Shown: piece by piece, positions 5,157 through 53,921 of the stretch
Numbering within the stretch: the first letter of the stretch is position 1
Layout of the letters: every line of letters begins with the position of its first letter
Assembly (NCBI GenBank): GCA_036556545.1
Contig: DATBJF010000060.1
Coordinates: 16,548 to 80,547, forward strand
DNA length: 64,000 bases
Direction: 5' to 3'
Source of the DNA: Candidatus Methylomirabilota bacterium
GTDB taxonomy: Bacteria; Methylomirabilota; Methylomirabilia; Rokubacteriales; CSP1-6
Notes under the pieces: generated by a model
What the model saw: only the letters and a program-made list of their open reading frames with translations
Databases searched by the model: none
What the model was told of the DNA's origin: nothing
Program-made: the position numbers and the translations under genes

Positions 5157-5753
5157 ATGACGGTGCGAGACGTCCTCAGGTCGATTCCGGGCACGGTCCC
5201 CGTCGTCCGGTATCTGCGGACGGTCGGACGCCCGGCGCCTCCGCATCGATACTGGGAAAAGCGAAAGCATTTTCGCTATTACGCGGAGGTGCTGCGACTG
5301 GCCCGGCGCTACGGTCCCGACGCGCGCTCGGTGCTCGACGTCGGATCGATGCACAGCCCGTTCATTCTGCAGTTCGACTGGATCGCGGAGAAAACCAGCC
5401 TCGACGTCCGTCCGGGCGCCCGCCTCCGCGGCTGCACGTGCCTCCAGGGTGATTTCCTCACCTACGACGTCCCCGGGCCCTTCGACCTCGTCGTCTGCCT
5501 GCAAGTGCTCGAGCATCTCGAGGCGCCGACACCATTCGTTCAGAAGCTCCTCGACACCGGCGCCACCGTCATCGTCTCGGTGCCGTACCGCTGGCCGCAC
5601 GGCAAGTCGCCGAACCACGTGCAGGATCCCGTGGACGAGGCCAAGCTCCGCCGATGGGCGGGGCGCGACTGGGTCGAGCAGCAGGTCGTCCGGGAGAGCG
5701 ACGGAACCGAGCGACTCGTGGTCGTGTTCCGGAGCGCGGCCACGCCGCGTTAG
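5157..5753 (+). CDS. Class I SAM-dependent methyltransferase
   Basis: Motif I VLDVGSMHSP and FDLVVCLQVLEHLEAP. ATG 5157 is preceded by GGAGAGGGAG (5139-5148). The longer track ORF from 5073 lacks a ribosome-binding site. Confidence 0.75.
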   Translation: MTVRDVLRSIPGTVPVVRYLRTVGRPAPPHRYWEKRKHFRYYAEVLRLARRYGPDARSVLDVGSMHSPFILQFDWIAEKTSLDVRPGARLRGCTCLQGDFLTYDVPGPFDLVVCLQVLEHLEAPTPFVQKLLDTGATVIVSVPYRWPHGKSPNHVQDPVDEAKLRRWAGRDWVEQQVVRESDGTERLVVVFRSAATPR

Positions 5754-24433: not shown

Positions 24434-27088
24434 ATGCCCGAATGCGTCGCGGTAGCGCCGCCGGCCATCGGAGCCCGCGGCGGAAGAGAGTGGCTGATCG
24501 ATCTGGCCGCGGCCGGCGACCGTGCGCTCTGCGGCGGCAAGGCCGCCGGACTGGCGCAGCTGCAGCGCGCCGGGTTCTCTGTTCCCGACGGCATCTGCCT
24601 GACCATCGAGCTTTGCCGGGCGGCGCTCCGGCAGCTCGATGTCGCCGCCCGAGTCGAGGCGCTCGCCGCCGATCCGCATATCGACCCGCAGACGCGCTCC
24701 GACCGGCTCGCCGACATACGCCGGCTCGTGGAAACGGCGCCCCTGCCCCCGAGTATCGTGGACGCCATCCATGGCGCCGTCATGACCGTGCGAACGGACT
24801 GGAACGGCATGCTGGCGGTCCGGTCGTCGGCGGTCCTCGAAGATCATCCCGACGCCTCGCACGCGGGCATCCACGCCAGCTTCGTCGGTCAGTACGCGGC
24901 CCCAGCGGTCGTGGCGCGGGTCAAGAGCTGCTGGGCATCGCTGTGGAGCGAGCGCGCGTGGGCCTACCGCGAGCGCCTCGGGATCCCGCACGCCGACGCC
25001 GCCATGGCCGTGATCGTGCAGCGATTCGTGGCGGGTGGTCGCGCAGGGGTGGCGTTCTCGGCCGATCCCCTGAGCGGCGACTCGGCCACGGTCGTCATCG
25101 AAGCCGTGCGGGGAACCGGCGAGGCCATCGTCGGCGGTACGCTCACCCCCGAGCAGTATCGCGTCACCATCAGCGGTGAGACGACCGCCGTGCACGCGGA
25201 GCGTTCCTCCGCACGCCCGGTGCTCGGCGGCGCCGAGATCCGCACGCTCGCGCGAGTGGTCAAGCGCGTGGAGCACGCGCTCCAGCAACCGGTCGACGTC
25301 GAGTGGGTCTACGACGGCGACACGCTGTGGCTCGTTCAGAGCCGGCCGATGCGTCGAGGCGCGCCGCGGCGCGAAGAGACGCTGTGGACGCGGGCCAATC
25401 TGAAGGAGGTCTTCCCCGACCTTCCGAGTCCTCTGGCGGCCTCCTACGTCGAGGTCGCACTGAATCGAATGTTTCGCGAATACCACTCCGCGCAAGGGTA
25501 CGCGGTGCGGGCGGACACCGGCCTCGTCCGTGTCTTCCGCGGCCGGCCGTATCTCAATCTCACCCTCATGACCCACATGACCGTCGTCCGTGGCGGCAAC
25601 CCGAGCATCGTGGCGCGGCTCTTCGGCGGGGCCATGCCGTCCGGTGCGCCGGTGGAGCGCCCGGTGTCCCGCCCGGTCATGGACCTGCGGCAGGGGGCCC
25701 GGCTGGTGCGCGAGCTGCTCACGACCATTTTCCTCACGCCTCGCCGTGCCGAGCGACTGTTCCGGACGATGCGCCGGCGGGCGAAGCGCTACGCGGCGGT
25801 TCCGCTGGAGCGGCTCGACGATGCGGCGGTGAGCCAGCACCTGATCCGCCTTGCCAATACGCTGCTCCATCCGGCGACGCTCCGCCGCCTCCACGAGATC
25901 GTGTCCGCGCAGTCGCGCGCTTACATGATCCTCGAGCGGCTCCTGGCGGCATGGATCCCCGCCGAGGCCGGCCGGCTGCTCGCGCAGCTCGTGACCGGCC
26001 TCGGCACGCTGCCCAACACGCGGCTGACGTACCGCCTCGTCGCGCTCAGCGAGGTGGCCCGGGCGGAGCCACGCGTCGAGGCGTTTCTCATGGAGGCGCG
26101 AGACCGCGAGGCGTTACGGACGTACCCGGCGGTCCTCGGGGGCACCCGGTTCCTCGCCGACCTCGACGAGGTCCTGCGCGAATTCGGTCACCGGGGTCCA
26201 TTCGAGTCGGACGTGATGTCGCCGCGATTCGAGGAGCAGCCGGAGCTGCTGCTGGAGATCATCCAGACGTACCTGCGCGCCCCCGCCCTCGAGAATCCCG
26301 CGCGTCACGAAGCCTATCGCCGCCGTCTGCGGGAAGGCGCCGAGCGTGAAGTCCGCGTGGCGCTCAGAGACAGGCCGTGGCTCACGTTCGTGCTCCAATC
26401 GACGATCCTCTCGGTCGTCGGACGCGCGCTCCAGCGACTGGTGGCGCAGCGTGACGAGAACCGCCACGTGACCACGTTGCTGGTGGCCCACCTGCGCCGG
26501 GTCGCGCTGGAGATCGGGCGCCGCGCGGCGCGCAAAGGCTCGTTCGCCGCCGCGGACGACGTGTTCTTCGTGCGGTGGGACGAGTTTGCCGGTGTCCTCA
26601 CCGGTCCCCGCCGCGACTGGCGCACGCTGGTCGCCGAGCGCCGCCGCGAGCGAGCGCGCAACGAGACCGTCAGCGCGCCGGATCTCCTGCGGGGCGACGA
26701 GTCCGCCGACGATGATGCGCCTCACGGTCTGGGCGGATTCGGTGTGAGTCCCGGCCGGGTCACGGGCACGGTGAAGATCATCAAGTCCCCGGCCGATCTG
26801 CGTGCCCTCGGCGGAGAGATCGCCGTCGTGTCGGCGATCGAGCCGAGCCTGACCTCGATCTTTCCGCTCGTCACCGGACTGATCGCCGAGATCGGCGGCC
26901 TGCTGAGCCACGGGGCCATCCTCGCGCGTGAATACGGATTGCCGGCCGTGGTGAACGCCAAGGACATCACTCGCCGATTGCACGATGGCGATCGGATCGA
27001 GCTGGACGGGACGAGCGGCCGGATCCGTCTGCTAGGACGCGAGTCCACCGCCGGCAACGGCGCCTGCACGGTGGCGAACGAGCAGTGA
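24434..27088 (+). CDS. PEP-utilising / pyruvate-water-dikinase-family enzyme with rifampicin-phosphotransferase-like architecture
   Basis: N-terminal PPDK_N ATP-grasp (GGKAAGLAQLQRAGFSVPDG...VRSSAVLEDHPDASHAGIHASF), a central region of about 450 aa, and a C-terminal swivel His domain (GVSPGRVTGTVKII...GGLLSHGAILAREYGLPAVV). 884 aa. Confidence 0.8.
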   Translation: MPECVAVAPPAIGARGGREWLIDLAAAGDRALCGGKAAGLAQLQRAGFSVPDGICLTIELCRAALRQLDVAARVEALAADPHIDPQTRSDRLADIRRLVETAPLPPSIVDAIHGAVMTVRTDWNGMLAVRSSAVLEDHPDASHAGIHASFVGQYAAPAVVARVKSCWASLWSERAWAYRERLGIPHADAAMAVIVQRFVAGGRAGVAFSADPLSGDSATVVIEAVRGTGEAIVGGTLTPEQYRVTISGETTAVHAERSSARPVLGGAEIRTLARVVKRVEHALQQPVDVEWVYDGDTLWLVQSRPMRRGAPRREETLWTRANLKEVFPDLPSPLAASYVEVALNRMFREYHSAQGYAVRADTGLVRVFRGRPYLNLTLMTHMTVVRGGNPSIVARLFGGAMPSGAPVERPVSRPVMDLRQGARLVRELLTTIFLTPRRAERLFRTMRRRAKRYAAVPLERLDDAAVSQHLIRLANTLLHPATLRRLHEIVSAQSRAYMILERLLAAWIPAEAGRLLAQLVTGLGTLPNTRLTYRLVALSEVARAEPRVEAFLMEARDREALRTYPAVLGGTRFLADLDEVLREFGHRGPFESDVMSPRFEEQPELLLEIIQTYLRAPALENPARHEAYRRRLREGAEREVRVALRDRPWLTFVLQSTILSVVGRALQRLVAQRDENRHVTTLLVAHLRRVALEIGRRAARKGSFAAADDVFFVRWDEFAGVLTGPRRDWRTLVAERRRERARNETVSAPDLLRGDESADDDAPHGLGGFGVSPGRVTGTVKIIKSPADLRALGGEIAVVSAIEPSLTSIFPLVTGLIAEIGGLLSHGAILAREYGLPAVVNAKDITRRLHDGDRIELDGTSGRIRLLGRESTAGNGACTVANEQ

Positions 27089-27619
27089 CGCGATCGCGAA
27101 GCCGATGAACGCGCCCGCGATCACGTCGGACAGGTAGTGTCGCGCCAGGTACACCCGCCCCAGCGCGATGGCGGCGGCCAGGCCGTACAGCGGCCAGCGC
27201 AGGGCGGGGTACGACGACGCAAGCGCGGTGGCCACGGCGAACACGGAGGTGGCGTGTCCCGAGGGAAACGAATCGAGCTCCAGGGAAAGGCTCGTCTCGG
27301 CCGCCGCGGGACGGGGCCGGCCAACCACGTACTTGAGGGTGTACTCGACCGCGCCCGCCGCCATGAACGCCAGGGCGCCGGCCCAGGCCGCCTCGCGCAG
27401 ACGAGGTCTCGCGCGGCTGAGGGCGGCCAGGACCAGGCACACGGCCAGCAGCGTGACCCCGCTGCCGATCGGATTGAGCACGCCGACGATGCCGTCGAGC
27501 GCGAGACCTCTGAGCTGCCGAGCCCAGTCCGCCACGTGATCATCGAGAAGGAACGCGGTCGCTAGAACGACGAGCATGGCGGACAGAGCCGTAACGAGCC
27601 TTCGCGAGGCGAGACCCAT
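27032..27619 (-). CDS. PAP2-family (type 2 phosphatidic acid phosphatase-like) membrane phosphatase
   Basis: KYVVGRPRP, PSGH and ARHYLSD, which match the three PAP2 motifs. Start ATG 27619 (MGLASRRL) is tentative. The 3' end overlaps the convergent gene by 57 nt. Confidence 0.8.
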   Translation of the reverse strand: MGLASRRLVTALSAMLVVLATAFLLDDHVADWARQLRGLALDGIVGVLNPIGSGVTLLAVCLVLAALSRARPRLREAAWAGALAFMAAGAVEYTLKYVVGRPRPAAAETSLSLELDSFPSGHATSVFAVATALASSYPALRWPLYGLAAAIALGRVYLARHYLSDVIAGAFIGFAIASLLVRHRAGAVAGGGLAS

Positions 27620-27677
27620 CGATTCGAGTATCGGCCGCGCACCGCGGATTGACAAGCTTCCCGAGAGGGGGCGATAG

Positions 27678-28649
27678 ATGACCAAGGTCTGGCGGGGCGG
27701 GCTGGTGGTCCTGGGCCTGGTGTCCGTGGGGTCCCTCATCGCCGCCACCGGCGTGACGGCCGTCCTGTCGGCCATGGCGACGCTGTCCTGGCGGATCGTC
27801 GTGATCGTGGTGTGCCCGGCCATCGTCGTGGTTGCGCTCGATACCCTGGCCTGGCGGTTCGCCTTCGAGCGGCTCCCTCCCTTTTACCGTCTCTTTGGCG
27901 TGCGCCTGGCCGGCGAGGCACTGAACACGGGCACCGCCTCCATCGGCGGCGAGGCCGCCAAGGTCTACCTCCTGCAGCCGGAGGTCCCGGCCGTCGAGGC
28001 CTCGGCCGCGACGCTGGTGGGAAAGACCGGCATCACGATCGCCCAGGTCCTCTTCCTGGGCGTCGGTCTGGCGGTGGCCCTCTCGTGCCTGGAGCCATCG
28101 CCCCTGGTGCTCACCGCAGCCTTCGTCGCCCTGGCGCTGGAGGCGATGGCCGTGGCCGCCTTCGTCCTCGTGCAGTGCGCCGGTGTCGTCGGGCGCACGC
28201 TCCGCCTCCTGCGACGGTGGGCCTGGCACGCTGCCGCCGACCGTCTCCAAGACCTGGTCCGCCTCGATCATTCGCTGGCCACGTTCTACGGGCGCCGGCG
28301 GGGACGCTTCGCGACCTGCGTCGCTCTCCATCTCGCCGCCTGGATCGTGGGCAGCCTCGAGGTCTATCTGGTGCTGCACTGGCTCGGCGTCGGCGTATCG
28401 TTCCCGATGGCCCTCTTCATCGACGCGGCCGGGTCGGCCATCAGCTTCGTAGGATTCGCCGTTCCGGCGCGACTCGGCGTGCTGGAAGGGGGGTACATGT
28501 CCGTATTCGCGGCGCTCGGCCTGGCTTCCGGAGTCGGCCTGTCCTTTGCGCTGATCCGCCGCCTGCGCCTTCTCGTCTGGAGCCTGCTCGGCGTCGTCGT
28601 GCTCATGGCCTATCAGGCGACGGCCACGCCACGCGCGTCGGCAACGTGA
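27678..28649 (+). CDS. Flippase-like membrane protein (lysylphosphatidylglycerol-synthase TM region / UPF0104 family)
   Basis: About eight hydrophobic helices. The segment RLAGEALNTGTASIGGEAAKVYLL is typical of this family. Start is ATG 27678 or GTG 27705. Confidence 0.75.
   Translation: MTKVWRGGLVVLGLVSVGSLIAATGVTAVLSAMATLSWRIVVIVVCPAIVVVALDTLAWRFAFERLPPFYRLFGVRLAGEALNTGTASIGGEAAKVYLLQPEVPAVEASAATLVGKTGITIAQVLFLGVGLAVALSCLEPSPLVLTAAFVALALEAMAVAAFVLVQCAGVVGRTLRLLRRWAWHAAADRLQDLVRLDHSLATFYGRRRGRFATCVALHLAAWIVGSLEVYLVLHWLGVGVSFPMALFIDAAGSAISFVGFAVPARLGVLEGGYMSVFAALGLASGVGLSFALIRRLRLLVWSLLGVVVLMAYQATATPRASAT
27680..27689 (+). promoter_or_regulatory. Exact decamer GACCAAGGTC (followed by TGG) at the annotated start of the flippase-like gene
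   Basis: Read directly (gatagatGACCAAGGTCTGgcg). Lies 61 nt upstream of the PAP2 start on the other strand. If this is an operator, the real start of the plus-strand gene may be GTG 27705. Confidence 0.45.
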
Positions 28650-28662
28650 ACCGGAGACGCCG

Positions 28663-31600
28663 GTGAGCCGACTCCTGGTTGCGGTGCTCCGTCTGTCCAC
28701 CGCGCGGCCAGCCCTGACCGCCGCCCTGTGTCTCGCGGCCGCCGCCGCGGCGCTCGTCTACGCGAGCAGCGCGCTGACGTTCGAGACATCCTCGGTGCGG
28801 TTGCTCCCGCCCCACCGCGTGTACGTTCAGGAATTCGACCGCTACCTTCGCGAGTTCGGCGAGCTCAACGACATCGTCATCGTCGTGGAGTCGAACGAGC
28901 CGGAGCAGGCCAAGGACTACGCCGCACGGCTGGCCAGCCTGCTCTCGGGCCCGCCGGTTCGCGCCACGCGCGTCACCTACCGCATCGATCCCGACCAGTT
29001 CGAGGGGCGCGCGCTGCTGTACCTGTCGCTGGAGCGGCTCACTGCGCTCCGGGATGCCGTCGAACGGCACCGCGAGTTCCTCGGGGCATACGCCGCCGAC
29101 CCGACGCTGGCGACTCTGGTCGCGTCCATCGACCGCGAGATGGTCCGTCGCCTCGCCGGACGCTTCGTCGATCTCGGGATCGAAGAGGCGTCGGCGTCGA
29201 GCTTCGACCCGGCCTTCGTCGACACGCTGCTCGCGTCCATCGGCGAGCGCCTGACGTCGGCGGCGGCGCGCCCGGCCTCGCCGTGGGGCGCGCTCATCTC
29301 CACCGGCCACGACGAGCGGTCGGGGTATTTCACGTCCCGCGACGGCAAGCTCCTCTTCGTGCTCGTGGAGCCGCGGCGCGAGGCCGGCAACTTCACCGAC
29401 AACAAGGAGATCATCGCCAGCATCCGGCGGACGATCGCAGACCTGCGCGCCGACTATCCCGCCGTCAGCGCCGGCGTGACCGGGACGCCCGCCCTGTCGA
29501 ACGACGAGATGCTCACCGCCTTTCGGGACAGCAGCGTCGCCACCGCCGCCTCCTGTCTCGCGACATTGCTGGTGGTGCTCCTCGTCTTCCGGCAGGTGCG
29601 CAAGCCTCTCGTAATGCTGTTCGTGCTCCAGGTGAGCCTGGCGTGGTCGCTCGGACTGATCGCGCTCACCGTCGGCCACCTGACCGTCTTCTCGGTGATG
29701 TTCATCGCCCTCTTCATCGGAGTCGGCGTCGACTACGGCATCTACCTGCTCTTCCGGTACCAGGAAGAGCTCGGCATCGCCCGGGATCCGCGCGCGGCGC
29801 TCGACACCGCTGTCGCCAGGGCGGGTCCCGGCATCGTCTTCGCCGCCCTCGCCGCCGCCGGCACGTTCGCGGTCCTGATGCTCACGGAGTTTCGCGGGAT
29901 CGTGGAGTTCGGCTTCATCGGCGCCCTGTCGATCGTGATGGCGCTCGTCGCCATGCTGACGTTGTTCCCGGCTCTGCTGCTCGTCCTCGACCGCCGATCG
30001 CCGCGGCCCGGTCCGGTCCTCGCCGGCGCGCAGCACACGGGGCGTCCGGCGGCCTCGCTCCTCGAGCGCGCGACCCGGCACACCCGGGTGATTCTCGGCG
30101 CCGCCGCGCTGGCGACCGGCTATTCGCTCTGGGCCGTCGCGGGAGTCGGCTTCGACTACAACCGCCTCAACCTCCAGGCCAAGGGCAGCGAGGCGGTGGT
30201 CTGGGAGAAGAAAATTCTCGACTCGGGCCGCTCGGCGTTCCCCGCCCTCGCCTCGGCCGGTTCGCTGGACGAGCTGCGGGCGAAGCAGGCGGCCTTTGGA
30301 CGGCTGTCCACGGTCTCGGAGGTCGTCAGCGTGTTGCGCGCGATCCCGACGGAGCAGACGCAGAAGATCGCGATCATCGGTGAGCTGGCCCCGACCGTGG
30401 CGCCCGTCCGGGTGGCGGACGCGCGTGACGCCGAGCCGGACAAGCTCCGGGCCGCCCTGCTCGGCCTGCGCAAGCGGCTGGCACTGGCGATTCGTGAGGC
30501 GGGCCCCGACGGCCCTTCGGCGACCCTCCGCTCGGCCGACTCCCGCGCCGAGGATCTGCTCGGACGCCTGGCGAACATCAGCCCGGAAGCGAGGGGTCGC
30601 CTCTCGACGATCCAGCGCGACTTCCGGGCCGATTTCGACGTGAAGCTGCGGCAGTTCCAGGACAACCTCGCCCCGACGCCGGTCACCGTCGACGTGCTGC
30701 CCGAGGAGGTCCGCCGGAAATTCATGGGACGGACCGGGACGTTCCTCATGCAGATCACACCGGCCGTGAACACGTGGAACCGAGAGGGCGTCGAGCAGTT
30801 CGTGCGCGAGCTGCGGACCGTCGATGCGGCGGTGACCGGATCGCCGGTCATCAGCTACGAGGCGAGCCGGCTCATGGAGATGGCGTACTTCGACGGCACG
30901 CTGTACGCCGGCCTCCTCGTGATCGGGCTGGCCGCGATGATGCTCCGGCGCCCGCGCGACACCGTGCTGGCCGTCCTGCCGATGTTCCTCGGGACGCTGT
31001 GGACGATCGGCTTCATGAACGCGGTCGGCCTGTCGTTCAACCTGGCGAACGTGTGGGCCCTGCCGCTGATCATCGGCGCCGCGGCCGAGTACGGTCTGAA
31101 CGTGGCCCTGCGCGATCGCGAAGCGCTCGAGCACGGCGGCCCTCGCCTGGCGCAGAGCACGGTCATGGCGGTCGTCCTGAACGGACTGACGACGGTGGCG
31201 GGCTTCAGCAGTCTCATGTTCGCTCGGCACCAGGGGATGTTCGGGCTCGGTCTGGTGCTGACGGTCGGCGCCGTCGCCGGGCTCGCGGCGGCGTTGCTCG
31301 TGCTTCCCGTGCTGCTGCGCCTCTTCAGCCGGGCGCCGGCGCCCGTGCGAATCAATTCCGGACTCGTGGAGGCCTCGATGACAGGCAAGCGATCATGCGT
31401 CGTGCTGGTGACCCTTCTCTCGCTCGCGGCCGTCGGATCGGTCGGCGCCCGCGCGGCCGGGGCCGGCGAGCCCACGGAACGGGTGCGGTCCGTGGTCGAC
31501 CGGCTCTACCGCCTGGCGTCGTCGCCCGCCCCCACGGTCGAAGATCGCCGCCAGCGCGACGTCGCCGCCGCCGAGGTCATGGAGCAGCTGTTCGACTGGC

Positions 31601-32046
31601 AGACGATGGCACGGCTGACGCTGCGGCAGCACTGGGAGAAGCGGACGCCGGCCGAGCGAGACGAGTTCACGCGGCTCTTCGCCGAGCTCTTCCGGCACGC
31701 GTATCTGACGCGGCTGTCCCTCGTGGACGCCAACGCCTTCCGCTACGAGGGCGACACCATCGCCGGCGAGCAGGCGACGGTGAACACCCAGGTCGTCACC
31801 AAGCGCGGCAGTGTCATCGGGGTCGCCTACGGCCTCGCCCGTTCCGGCGGACGTGGCTGGCGCGTGCACGACGTGCGCGTCGAGGGGATCAGCCTGCTGG
31901 ACAACTACCGCACACAGTTCGCGGCCATCATCGCCCGGTCGTCGTACGAGGCGCTGGTCGAGCGCCTCCGGGCCCGCGTCCGCGAGCACGGCTCCGGCTC
32001 GTCCGCCAGCCGACCCACAGCACGCCAAGGAGCGTCAGGGTCATGA
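28663..32046 (+). CDS. MMPL/RND-superfamily lipid exporter (HpnN-like) with in-frame C-terminal MlaC/Ttg2D-like module
   Basis: Two 6-TM bundles with large periplasmic loops (VVLLVFRQVRKPLVMLFVLQVSLAWSLGLIAL; MFLGTLWTIGFMNAVGLSFNLANVWALPLIIGAAAEYGLN). GTG start with GGAGA upstream. The frame continues without a stop into the MlaC-like part. Confidence 0.85.
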   Translation: MSRLLVAVLRLSTARPALTAALCLAAAAAALVYASSALTFETSSVRLLPPHRVYVQEFDRYLREFGELNDIVIVVESNEPEQAKDYAARLASLLSGPPVRATRVTYRIDPDQFEGRALLYLSLERLTALRDAVERHREFLGAYAADPTLATLVASIDREMVRRLAGRFVDLGIEEASASSFDPAFVDTLLASIGERLTSAAARPASPWGALISTGHDERSGYFTSRDGKLLFVLVEPRREAGNFTDNKEIIASIRRTIADLRADYPAVSAGVTGTPALSNDEMLTAFRDSSVATAASCLATLLVVLLVFRQVRKPLVMLFVLQVSLAWSLGLIALTVGHLTVFSVMFIALFIGVGVDYGIYLLFRYQEELGIARDPRAALDTAVARAGPGIVFAALAAAGTFAVLMLTEFRGIVEFGFIGALSIVMALVAMLTLFPALLLVLDRRSPRPGPVLAGAQHTGRPAASLLERATRHTRVILGAAALATGYSLWAVAGVGFDYNRLNLQAKGSEAVVWEKKILDSGRSAFPALASAGSLDELRAKQAAFGRLSTVSEVVSVLRAIPTEQTQKIAIIGELAPTVAPVRVADARDAEPDKLRAALLGLRKRLALAIREAGPDGPSATLRSADSRAEDLLGRLANISPEARGRLSTIQRDFRADFDVKLRQFQDNLAPTPVTVDVLPEEVRRKFMGRTGTFLMQITPAVNTWNREGVEQFVRELRTVDAAVTGSPVISYEASRLMEMAYFDGTLYAGLLVIGLAAMMLRRPRDTVLAVLPMFLGTLWTIGFMNAVGLSFNLANVWALPLIIGAAAEYGLNVALRDREALEHGGPRLAQSTVMAVVLNGLTTVAGFSSLMFARHQGMFGLGLVLTVGAVAGLAAALLVLPVLLRLFSRAPAPVRINSGLVEASMTGKRSCVVLVTLLSLAAVGSVGARAAGAGEPTERVRSVVDRLYRLASSPAPTVEDRRQRDVAAAEVMEQLFDWQTMARLTLRQHWEKRTPAERDEFTRLFAELFRHAYLTRLSLVDANAFRYEGDTIAGEQATVNTQVVTKRGSVIGVAYGLARSGGRGWRVHDVRVEGISLLDNYRTQFAAIIARSSYEALVERLRARVREHGSGSSASRPTARQGASGS
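31378..32046 (+). other. MlaC/Ttg2D-like phospholipid-binding module with its own ribosome-binding site, ATG and signal peptide, nested in frame in the MMPL ORF
   Basis: GTGGAGG lies 6 nt before ATG 31378. MTGKRSCVVLVTLLSLAAVGSVGARAAGA looks like a signal peptide. MlaC-type core: MEQLFDWQTMARLTLRQHWEKRTPAERDEFTRLFAELFRHAYLTRL. Confidence 0.55.
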
Positions 32047-32446
32047 CGACGGCGTTCGGCCAGGACGCCAGCGTCCAGCGCCCCGCATAGGACCACCCCC
32101 ACTCGGAGAGCGGCCAGAAATAGCGGATGGGCAATCCACCGGTGCCCACCAGGTCCAGGGCCAGGTGGAGGTGGAAGCTCAGCAGCCCGAGTACGGCTGC
32201 CGTCCCGCGCTCGTCCGCGAGCGCCAGCGTGAGCGCGACCCACGCCAGCACGAACACGAGGCCGTGGCCAACGGCGCGGTGCGCCGCCACGTAGGCGTCC
32301 TGGCTCCAGAGGATCCCCACGCCGTCGAAGTCCGGGAGAACACCGGCCAGCGTGATGAGCCAGCGGTCCCGCGCCGATCGGGCGCGAAGGCTGGCCACGA
32401 TCCAGCTGAGACCGATGTGAGTCAGGAAGTGCAGCCCCGTCAGCAT
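31928..32446 (-). CDS. Membrane-bound metal-dependent hydrolase (YdjM/DUF457 family)
   Basis: MLTGLHFLTHIGLSWIV...LAGVLPDFDG...HRAVGHGL...SFHLHLALD pattern of His/Asp on short TM helices. The 3' tail overlaps the convergent ORF by 119 nt. Confidence 0.7.
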   Translation of the reverse strand: MLTGLHFLTHIGLSWIVASLRARSARDRWLITLAGVLPDFDGVGILWSQDAYVAAHRAVGHGLVFVLAWVALTLALADERGTAAVLGLLSFHLHLALDLVGTGGLPIRYFWPLSEWGWSYAGRWTLASWPNAVVMTLTLLGVLWVGWRTSRSRARGRGPGGARPAPRTTTGR

Positions 32447-52839: not shown

Positions 52840-53921
52840 CGAGGCGCCCGTCCTTTCCCGAACACGAGCGAATTCGGGTTGCGCTCGAGATAGTCGGCGA
52901 GAACCCGGATGCTCTGCGCCGCCTCCGAGAGATCGTCGAGCGCCGTCTCGAGACCCGCGCGCACGGCGGAGCCGTCGCCGATGACCTCGTCGGCGCCGCG
53001 CAGCGTGTGGTCCAGCCCGGCCAGGGTGCGGTCGAGGCTGACCGCGAGCTGCCCGAGGCGCTCGTCGGTGTTGCGAGCGAGCGTCTGGTAGTCCTTCAGC
53101 GTGCCGTCGGCCGTCTTCAGCGCGGTCTCCACGGTCGGCGTGAGGCGGACGAGGGTGGCCTGCGCTTCTGCGAGCGCGCCCCGGGCACTCTGCGCCGTCG
53201 CCCGGATCTCCTTCATCAGCGGCTCGACCTGCGCGTCGACGCGGCGGACGAGCCCCTCGGCGGCGGCCAGCGCTTCCTCGGCCCGCCGCGCCGCGTTGTT
53301 CAATGACCGCAGCGTCTGGCGGGTCTCCGGCGACCGGACGATCTCGCGCACCGCCTCCAGCGTGTCCTTCGCCGCCGCCGTGATCTCTTCGATGGGCAGA
53401 TTCTGGAGCGCCCGGGTCAGCTTCTCGATGTCGGACGGTATCGTCGGCACTTCCAGATGGTCTTTCGACAATCCCGTCAATCGGAGCGCCGTTTCGGGGT
53501 GGAAGTCCAGGGCGATTCCGACCTGTCCGGTCACGAAGCTTTGCACCTCGAGCTGCGCGCGAAGTCCCCGCTGGAAGAGCCCCTGCATCCGCGTACGGCC
53601 GTCGCCGGTGACCGTGTACTTGCCGCCCGAGACGCTCGTGAGCCGGTCCGCGTCGATCTCGAAGAACACCGGCGTCACGATCGTGGCCTTCGCATCGTCG
53701 ACGACCACGCGTACGTCGGTCACGGCGCCGATCCGGGCCCCCTGGAACGTCACCGGCGCTCCGATGGACACCCCCTTGATCGATCCATCGAAGTACGCGA
53801 CGAGCTCCCGCGTGTGCCGGAAGAACGTTCCCCCGCCCAGCAACACGAGTCCCGTGACAGCCAGGACGATGGCGCCGATCACGAAGCCGCCGATGAGGGC
53901 GGGATTCGCCCGTCTAGGCAT
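52836..53921 (-). CDS. MCE/MlaD-family protein with long helical C-terminal extension
   Basis: N-terminal TM helix, MCE domain (YFDGSIKGVSIGAPVTFQGARIGAVTDV), then a helical Ala/Leu/Arg-rich region of about 200 aa. Start at ATG 53921 (MPRRANP). Confidence 0.85.
   Translation of the reverse strand: MPRRANPALIGGFVIGAIVLAVTGLVLLGGGTFFRHTRELVAYFDGSIKGVSIGAPVTFQGARIGAVTDVRVVVDDAKATIVTPVFFEIDADRLTSVSGGKYTVTGDGRTRMQGLFQRGLRAQLEVQSFVTGQVGIALDFHPETALRLTGLSKDHLEVPTIPSDIEKLTRALQNLPIEEITAAAKDTLEAVREIVRSPETRQTLRSLNNAARRAEEALAAAEGLVRRVDAQVEPLMKEIRATAQSARGALAEAQATLVRLTPTVETALKTADGTLKDYQTLARNTDERLGQLAVSLDRTLAGLDHTLRGADEVIGDGSAVRAGLETALDDLSEAAQSIRVLADYLERNPNSLVFGKGRAPR

Follow-up and report, generated by a model that had tools for sequence, protein, structure and literature searches.

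The 64,000-nucleotide stretch analysed here (hereafter the window) derives from a Candidatus Methylomirabilota bacterium of the order Rokubacteriales (GCA_036556545.1, contig DATBJF010000060.1, positions 16,548 to 80,547) and encodes, in a single open reading frame (ORF), a lipid exporter of the RND/MMPL type followed by an MlaC-like periplasmic lipid carrier (Table 1). The ORF reads through from 28663 to 32046 without an internal stop, and its G+C content at third codon positions (0.91) is typical for the genes of this genome. The N-terminal ~890 residues match the Pfam model MMPL (PF03176) in two stretches (134.5 bits, cut-off 20.5), placing both repeats of the pump in the RND/MMPL family by gathering score, and residues 948-1103 match MlaC (PF05494) over model positions 7-165 of 166 (122.1 bits, cut-off 26, E 2.7e-35), placing the C-terminal domain in the MlaC/Ttg2D family over nearly the full length of the model. 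The original prediction, made from the letters of the sequence alone, had proposed a full MMPL transporter and an MlaC/Ttg2D-type domain within one ORF, and both Pfam matches agree with it.

Table 1. Features of the fused gene and its surroundings, in window coordinates; topology, signal peptide regions and cut site are predictions.
Feature	Position	Strand	Remarks
Whole fused ORF	28663..32046	+	1127 aa, GTG start, TGA stop; exporter, putative internal signal peptide, MlaC-like carrier
RND/MMPL (HAE3, HpnN-like) exporter module	28663..31329	+	Residues 1-889; 12 transmembrane helices and two periplasmic domains
Cytoplasmic linker and n-region	31330..31392	+	Residues 890-910, net basic, ends K909-R910; sequence variable in homologues
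Relic ribosome-binding site GTGGAGG and ATG (M906)	31366-31372 and 31378-31380	+	Putative ancestral start of the carrier gene
Hydrophobic core (h-region)	31393..31446	+	Residues 911-928; putative 13th membrane-crossing segment, cytoplasm to periplasm
c-region with A932-G933-A934	31447..31464	+	Predicted signal peptidase I cut at 31464/31465 (A934/G935)
MlaC/HpnM-like periplasmic lipid-binding domain	31465..31989	+	Residues 935-1109, begins GEPTER
Ser/Gly-rich C-terminal tail and stop, non-conserved	31990..32046	+	AlphaFold2 pLDDT <50; no counterpart in homologues
HpnL-like/LPG_synthase_TM (flippase-like) membrane protein	27678..28649	+	13 nt before the GTG of the fusion; 13/28 loci
PPDK_N and phosphoenolpyruvate-utiliser swivel-domain enzyme (rifampicin-phosphotransferase-like dikinase)	24434..27088	+	22/28 loci
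PAP2 lipid-phosphate phosphatase	27032..27823	-	Pfam 77.8 bits; 22/28 loci; true start may lie downstream of 27823
YdjM-family inner-membrane putative hydrolase	31928..32446	-	Pfam 50.6 bits; convergent with the fusion; 20/28 loci

The closest solved structure of the pump is HpnN, both by sequence (5khn/6wu0, E 6e-47 over residues 2-885) and by Foldseek (best match 5khn, E 5e-29), and its score against the HAE3 model TIGR00921 (192.8 bits) lies under the subfamily cut-off of 351.9. With the HpnN of Burkholderia multivorans and B. pseudomallei, an HAE3/MMPL-type hopanoid transporter (PDB 5KHN, 5KHS, 6WU0), the pump shares 12 transmembrane (TM) helices, two periplasmic domains and an Asp in TM4, with which D357 aligns. 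It differs in showing only about 24% identity over the structural alignment and scores below the HpnN equivalog cut-offs, in carrying E-Y in TM10 where HpnN has A-F-K, in lying away from hopanoid genes, and in the addition of a 13th segment and a C-terminal carrier domain. In the alignment of 24 fused proteins described below, D357-Y358 of TM4 and E809 of TM10 are invariant, and in the window's protein E809 is followed by Y810; charged residues with a predicted role in proton relay are present in the pump at both positions. Its D-Y and E-Y pairs are presumably nearer to the Asp-Tyr pairs of MmpL3 than to TM10 of HpnN.

The carrier domain matches 11hy, 2qgu, 8dte and MlaC chains in the PDB, and AlphaFold2 (AF2) predicts for it a mixed alpha/beta fold with a block-mean predicted local distance difference test score (pLDDT) of about 67-86. 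The full-chain AF2 model (pLDDT 69.6, predicted template modelling score (pTM) 0.53) was used for secondary structure alone. The tail of the fusion overlaps the convergent YdjM ORF by 119 nt (31928-32046); homologues stop ~18 residues sooner, so the real ends of the fusion, of the YdjM gene or of both may be shorter than the ORFs.

The fusion was recovered independently of the assembly. Logan contigs from three sequencing runs cover the junction (X12, 31009-32100; X13, 30800-31678; X6, 31097-32100) with no differing letter and no gap; the runs belong to 2020 soil and 2025 rhizosphere studies, and neither X12 nor X13 carries a flag as a potential source of the window's DNA. A search of metagenome protein clusters (90% identity) with the C-terminal part as query, confined to proteins of comparable overall length, yielded 24 clusters carrying both Pfam domains, 23 of them of 1082-1104 aa and one a 726-aa fragment. 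The 23 full-length proteins are 54-71% identical to that of the window and retain invariant residues throughout both modules. Within its GTDB genus the fused gene is also found in three further species (G003, G004 and G006), making four species genomes in all. The tally of relatives included the unpublished genome G020, on which none of the present statements relies.

These findings bear directly on whether the junction is an artefact or a recent accident with no biological meaning, such as an error of sequencing or assembly or a new frameshift through the stop codon; the original prediction had allowed for a lost stop codon or an assembly error. Such an origin would be in keeping with the frame change in a short overlap that distinguishes split from fused relatives, with single-contig cases such as locus L104 that could be errors, and with the nanopore metagenome-assembled genome (MAG) locus L078, which is riddled with frameshifts. 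It is very hard to reconcile with three separately assembled runs that are identical over the junction, with 24 fused clusters that have diverged to about 54% identity while conserving both modules, and with the presence of the gene in four species genomes, and can be virtually dismissed. Around 31300-31400, where read support had been called for, the independent per-run contigs contain neither a stop nor an insertion or deletion. The proposed in-frame continuation of an MMPL exporter into an MlaC-like part is therefore borne out by contigs, clusters and relatives alike, the option of a lost stop codon or assembly error is refuted, and the gene fusion is genuine and long-lasting within one clade. 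In L078 (6001-9308; MFD06298.bin.2.71, 1.07 Mb contig) the orthologous pump gene contains at least five frame changes, which resemble long-read homopolymer errors, so that this locus is not scorable as fused or split.

The two modules are joined by a linker of 26-48 residues after TM12 (LPVLLR, residues 881-886) that shows near-zero sequence conservation among fused proteins. Its first part is net basic in most members and is followed by a hydrophobic core and then usually by a Pro/Gly or charged residue; in the window's protein the charge between the end of LPVLLR and R930 is +5/-1. Conservation returns abruptly at the end of this segment, where an A-x-A motif stands immediately ahead of G-E-P-T: among the 24 fused proteins A932 and A934 reach at least 90% conservation and G935, P937 and T938 are invariant, while position -2 varies freely among A, S, M, T, G, L and W. 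This arrangement corresponds to the n-h-c layout and the -3/-1 rule of those Sec signal peptides that signal peptidase I removes. In a comparison of 25 fused forms with 19 split orthologues bearing N-terminal signal peptides, position -3 was Ala in 23, Val in one and Asp in one of the fused forms and Ala in 15, Val in two and Thr in two of the split ones; position -1 was Ala in 24 and Gly in one of the fused forms and Ala in all 19 split ones. The median number of residues from the last Lys or Arg of the n-region to -1 was 23 (fused) and 20 (split), and Pro or Gly occurred at -4 to -7 in 23/25 and 15/19, respectively. By these measures the junction appears to be the carrier's own Sec signal peptide, matching the N-terminal ones of split orthologues. 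A signal-peptide-like N-terminus is likewise present in seven standalone MlaC paralogues of this genome, and in five it ends with A-x-A before G-x-P-T/A-D. The original prediction had recognised a signal-peptide-like segment between the two parts, and the hydrophobic segment and the peptides that it quoted were found where it had placed them.

HpnN has 12 TM helices with both termini in the cytoplasm (PDB 5KHN). Homology to HpnN extends to residue 885 of the fusion, so the linker should be cytoplasmic, the hydrophobic core should cross the membrane from inside to outside, and A-x-A should lie at the periplasmic face, the side on which signal peptidase I works; this topology is deduced from the homology together with the charge pattern. 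The uncharged stretch at the junction has a median length of 20 residues and reaches 25, and in some fused members the core is only about 12-13 residues long or a Lys/Arg lies a few residues ahead of the site. AF2 predicts a helix at residues 904-925 (pLDDT <50 over 891-934) and begins the first helix of the carrier at residue 936.

In other close relatives the pump and carrier are separate, abutting ORFs in which the pump stop overlaps the carrier start, so that the orthologue comparison suggested by the original prediction found both states. In locus L036 (genome G008) the pump ends in ...AAGGAGCCGTGATG and its TGA overlaps the carrier ATG, in L062 the overlap reads GTGTTGA, and in L072 (G005), where AAGGAG precedes the carrier ATG, the two ORFs share 40 nt; split orthologues have AAGGAG and ATG or GTG where the window has its relic start. 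Among metagenome contigs with the carrier domain, 10 loci are fused and 23 split-adjacent, and 42 more encode a more distant MlaC with no pump upstream. In the pump tree, fused and adjacent forms make up one clade (Shimodaira-Hasegawa-like approximate likelihood ratio test 100), apart from the other Rokubacterial HpnN-like pumps. On the tree of pump C-terminus and carrier the fused/split label requires at least four changes (bootstrap range 4-4), meaning that the fusion arose or reverted several times on this tree. Split forms hold most of the deep branches, so that the two genes were probably a coupled pair ancestrally and fused several times independently. The ancestral stop/start overlap, a layout expected of translationally coupled genes, would need only a small frame change to join the two genes.

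L104 is fused and sister to a branch that includes split L036; its junction (5400-5630) is nearly identical to that of L036, the 'KERKGAMM' derived from the Shine-Dalgarno sequence is in frame and the carrier's Met-Met start is still in frame. L104 is known from one contig, and if it is not a natural fusion of very recent date it reflects a 1-nt error of assembly. In L034/L018 (G010:C7, first ~500 bases) a pump orthologue of 61% identity ends in a stop, after which L034 retains only a short out-of-frame remnant of the carrier's first helix; either the carrier module of G010 was lost or decayed, or the contig is chimeric. Loci L057, L062 and L076 are labelled as the archaeon 'Nitrosotalea sp.' SMAG_U15217, and L040, L041, L044, L055, L064 and L074 come from MAGs labelled Verrucomicrobiia, Dormiibacterota, Limnocylindria, Deferrimicrobiaceae and Acidoferrum. 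The pump genes of all these loci nest within Rokubacterial clades, and the contigs are probably mis-binned Rokubacteria DNA.

On balance, the slightly favoured reading of the fused chain is that it is a precursor, which signal peptidase I would cleave to give a pump of 13 helices and a carrier free of it. The 12th helix of the pump would end in the cytoplasm, where the basic linker would stay, and the former signal peptide of the carrier would span the membrane outwards as a 13th segment. Signal peptidase I would then cut A-x-A/GEPT at the periplasmic face, between A934 and G935; the pump would keep an additional helix at its C-terminus, and one soluble carrier starting with GEPTER would be released beside each pump. 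Driven by the proton gradient, the pump would extract a lipid from the inner membrane and pass it to the carrier, which would ferry it toward the outer membrane; this hand-over is envisaged by analogy with Mla and with the proposed HpnN-HpnM route. Processing of this type was reportedly shown experimentally by Thony-Meyer and co-workers, about 1989-1991, for the cytochrome b-c1 precursor FbcH of Bradyrhizobium japonicum, in which a membrane protein and a periplasm-facing partner are likewise said to be synthesised as a single polypeptide that is split at an internal signal peptide. The proteins of that system are unrelated to those described here, and for the window's fusion processing is a prediction.

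Processing is favoured by the retention of A-x-A while the surrounding linker drifts, and by the short cores, or the charge near the site, seen in some members. The ~10 residues between the end of the predicted helix (925) and the start of the carrier helix (936) would pin an uncut domain at the membrane surface, and since the first helix of the carrier starts two residues past the predicted cut site in the AF2 model, there is little room for a tether. Repeated switching between fused and split states is also easiest to understand if both yield the same mature products. Several points weigh on the other side. Ala is very common in this high-GC organism and conservation of A-x-A is possibly in part compositional or inherited, GEPT belongs to the mature domain and could alone constrain the adjoining residues, and in many members the uncharged stretch is long enough for a stable anchor. 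Cleavage itself is deduced from sequence, AF2 places the junction without confidence (pLDDT <50 at 891-934, pTM 0.53), and the module does not encode an outer-membrane partner. Contigs from the soil metatranscriptome run X21 that are 100% identical to the window at 30800-31055, 31546-31696 and 31784-31934, in both the pump and carrier parts, are a hint of expression; none of them spans the junction, and they may stem from DNA carried over into that library.

The main and serious rival to cleavage, though judged unlikely, is a permanent tether, in which an uncleaved 13th TM helix would keep the MlaC-like domain fixed on the periplasmic side of the pump, where it would load or receive lipid in place and not act as a shuttle. 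The chain is continuous in every fused form, the median uncharged run and the helix predicted at residues 904-925 are compatible with an anchor, and the stoichiometry and proximity of partners are commonly fixed by joining them in a single chain. The covalent tether of the original prediction thus stands as far as the continuous chain is concerned, while the near-invariant A-x-A in a linker that otherwise drifts favours cleavage over permanent attachment. Cores of about 12-13 residues, and Lys or Arg just ahead of the site, also fit a tether poorly. The short gap would keep the domain on the membrane, far under the top of an HpnN-type periplasmic domain and with the outer membrane unreachable, and the four or more fused/split switches among close relatives are more easily accommodated by identical mature products.

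A further alternative is a nested gene, the carrier being made here mainly from ATG 31378 and exported by its own signal peptide, with the read-through fusion as a by-product. GTGGAGG lies 5 nt before this ATG, a complete n-h-c signal peptide follows, the equivalent position is the true carrier start in split orthologues, and M906 is kept in three of the five closest fused proteins, P0005 and P0012 among them. In the proteins P0006 and P0007 Leu stands in its place, and the remaining 18 fused clusters lack the Met. The DNA of loci L032, L033 and L035 contains no usable start codon before the hydrophobic core, which means that there the fused chain must suffice for carrier delivery. Nothing halts the ribosomes translating the pump, and the fusion would be produced in any case. 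Internal initiation therefore fits best as a local extra, and as the principal route to the carrier it is quite improbable. The dual expression suggested by the original prediction retains its Shine-Dalgarno-like GTGGAGG and ATG 31378 and loses its generality, the start not being conserved among fused forms; a second product is possible in the window's subgroup and is not a general mechanism. Decay of the internal start in most fused lineages is expected if it was no longer needed, as would be the case if the fused chain is a precursor cut by signal peptidase I.

The fused pair could also be the cell's HpnN-HpnM hopanoid exporter in fused form, since its best NCBIfam matches are to HpnN, HpnM and HpnL, its pump has HpnN as closest solved structure, and the genome makes hopanoids, encoding a squalene-hopene cyclase (772 bits). 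Against this, the scores for HpnN, HpnM and HpnL are all under the curated cut-offs: TIGR03480 (HpnN) matched model positions 2-857 of 862 with 524.8 bits (equivalog cut-off 751.85), NF052374 (HpnN equivalog) reached 312.3 bits (cut-off 1100) and TIGR03481 (HpnM) 70.8 bits (cut-off 160.1); the sterol transporter model NF045600 (BstA) gave 305.2 bits (cut-off 1400). The cyclase is encoded away from the fusion on contig C126, where its neighbours are an MCE (MlaD) gene and another gene of the MlaC family (G000 C126:2085-6637), and a second HpnN-like paralogue (579 bits) is found at G000 C127:39173-41872, on a contig that may adjoin C126. In relatives, this type of paralogue lies within a few kb of an MlaC-like gene whose product is 35-37% identical to the carrier domain of the fusion. 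The fused/split clade is a separate, well-supported branch, TM10 has E-Y here and A-F in HpnN, and the neighbours of the fusion are dikinase, PAP2, YdjM and HpnL-like genes and not hopanoid biosynthesis genes such as shc and hpnH. A role as the hopanoid exporter is improbable on this evidence, and the fused pair is probably not the cell's main hopanoid route. The caution of the original prediction that an HpnN assignment was unjustified is upheld by the HpnN, HpnM and BstA scores and by the location of the cyclase on another contig.

The carrier is similarly distant from the MlaFEDB system, with 23.3 bits against the MlaC equivalog model NF011697 (cut-off 195). MlaE, MlaF or MlaD genes do not adjoin the fusion, and the nearest MCE gene in the window, an MCE/MlaD-domain gene at 53502-53813 on the reverse strand (G000:C60:70049-70360), is ~21 kb downstream. 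The genome encodes eight MlaC-family genes to three MCE genes and one MlaA gene, indicating that the carrier family has expanded well beyond Mla systems.

Two recently described systems invite comparison. An HpnN-HpnM-HpnS hopanoid trafficking route has been predicted from synteny and AlphaFold 3 (Lawrence, Pan, Ollikainen & Belin, PMC12324291, mSystems 2026). As in that route, an RND pump is here paired with an MlaC-family protein bearing a signal peptide, and an HpnL-like gene is near. There the genes are separate (PMC12324291), whereas here they encode one chain, in a different phylum and with no MlaA or HpnS in the module, and the different set of neighbours points to another substrate. 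In Campylobacter jejuni, the mlaA (Cj1371)-mlaC (Cj1372)-RND (Cj1373) operon has been proposed to mediate RND-driven MlaC loading and anterograde transport (bioRxiv 10.64898/2026.08.28.747810). Its MlaC and MMPL-type RND genes are translationally coupled by overlapping stop and start, resembling the split loci described above, but unlike the window it has mlaC ahead of RND, unfused, with MlaA present and with phospholipids and lysophospholipids as proposed substrates. A natural RND-MlaC fusion is mentioned in neither report, the words 'fused' and 'fusion' being absent from the text of PMC12324291, and literature searches for an RND/MMPL-MlaC fusion returned nothing directly on point.

The genes around the fusion recur with it. 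Across 28 loci, fused or split, that were 9 kb or longer, the dikinase and PAP2 genes were each found in 22, the YdjM gene in 20 and the HpnL-like gene in 13, and all four were absent (0/9) near the nine MlaC loci without a pump that served as control. The flippase-like upstream gene pointed out by the original prediction is thus a recurrent module member. The downstream Orn/Lys/Arg decarboxylase was rejected as a member (0/28 loci). Gene order and orientation vary within the module, which spans 24434-32446 in the window and is also found in L036, L062, L072, L082, L087, L092-L097, L102, L104, L113 and L122. In G006 and G004 the place of the HpnL-like gene immediately ahead of the fused pump is taken by a gene for an SBF (sodium/bile-acid symporter family) protein (L027 6854-7933, L028 7313-9248), joined in G004 by one for a HAD hydrolase. 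As a guess, the neighbours hint at a lipid that passes through a phosphorylation/dephosphorylation cycle. It is a tentative and rather doubtful proposal that the pair, with the dikinase, PAP2, YdjM and HpnL-like proteins, forms an undescribed envelope pathway in which such a lipid would be phosphorylated and dephosphorylated at the inner membrane and then carried out by a proton-driven pump whose carrier releases itself from a common precursor.

The distribution of the fusion is narrow. With the best 150 matches considered, a junction-spanning query against 1.84 billion representatives (50% identity) found P0015 as the sole full-length cluster over both parts among the matches listed, together with fragments, and no large cluster with both domains was among the matches listed from the ESM Atlas. 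As far as these searches reach, the RND-MlaC fusion appears confined to one Rokubacterial clade.

The pump family, the carrier family and the type of processing were already known, and the partnership had been proposed. In 2025-2026 two groups, relying solely on synteny and modelling, suggested that RND pumps of the MMPL type load MlaC-type carriers to take lipids to the outer membrane (PMC12324291; bioRxiv 10.64898/2026.08.28.747810), and whether RND pumps do so is an open question in envelope biogenesis. The repeated natural fusion of these two proteins provides independent 'Rosetta stone' evidence for their joint action. With both partners in a single ORF, blocking the A-x-A site could trap a 1:1 pump-carrier assembly for structural work, and the intact ORF offers a test case for internal signal peptides that make two envelope proteins from one chain. 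The kinase and phosphatase neighbours point to an as yet unidentified lipid in a little-known, uncultured soil phylum, and if the pathway proposed for them is true, these bacteria would possess an Mla-independent, RND-driven anterograde lipid route with a built-in 1:1 pump:carrier stoichiometry.

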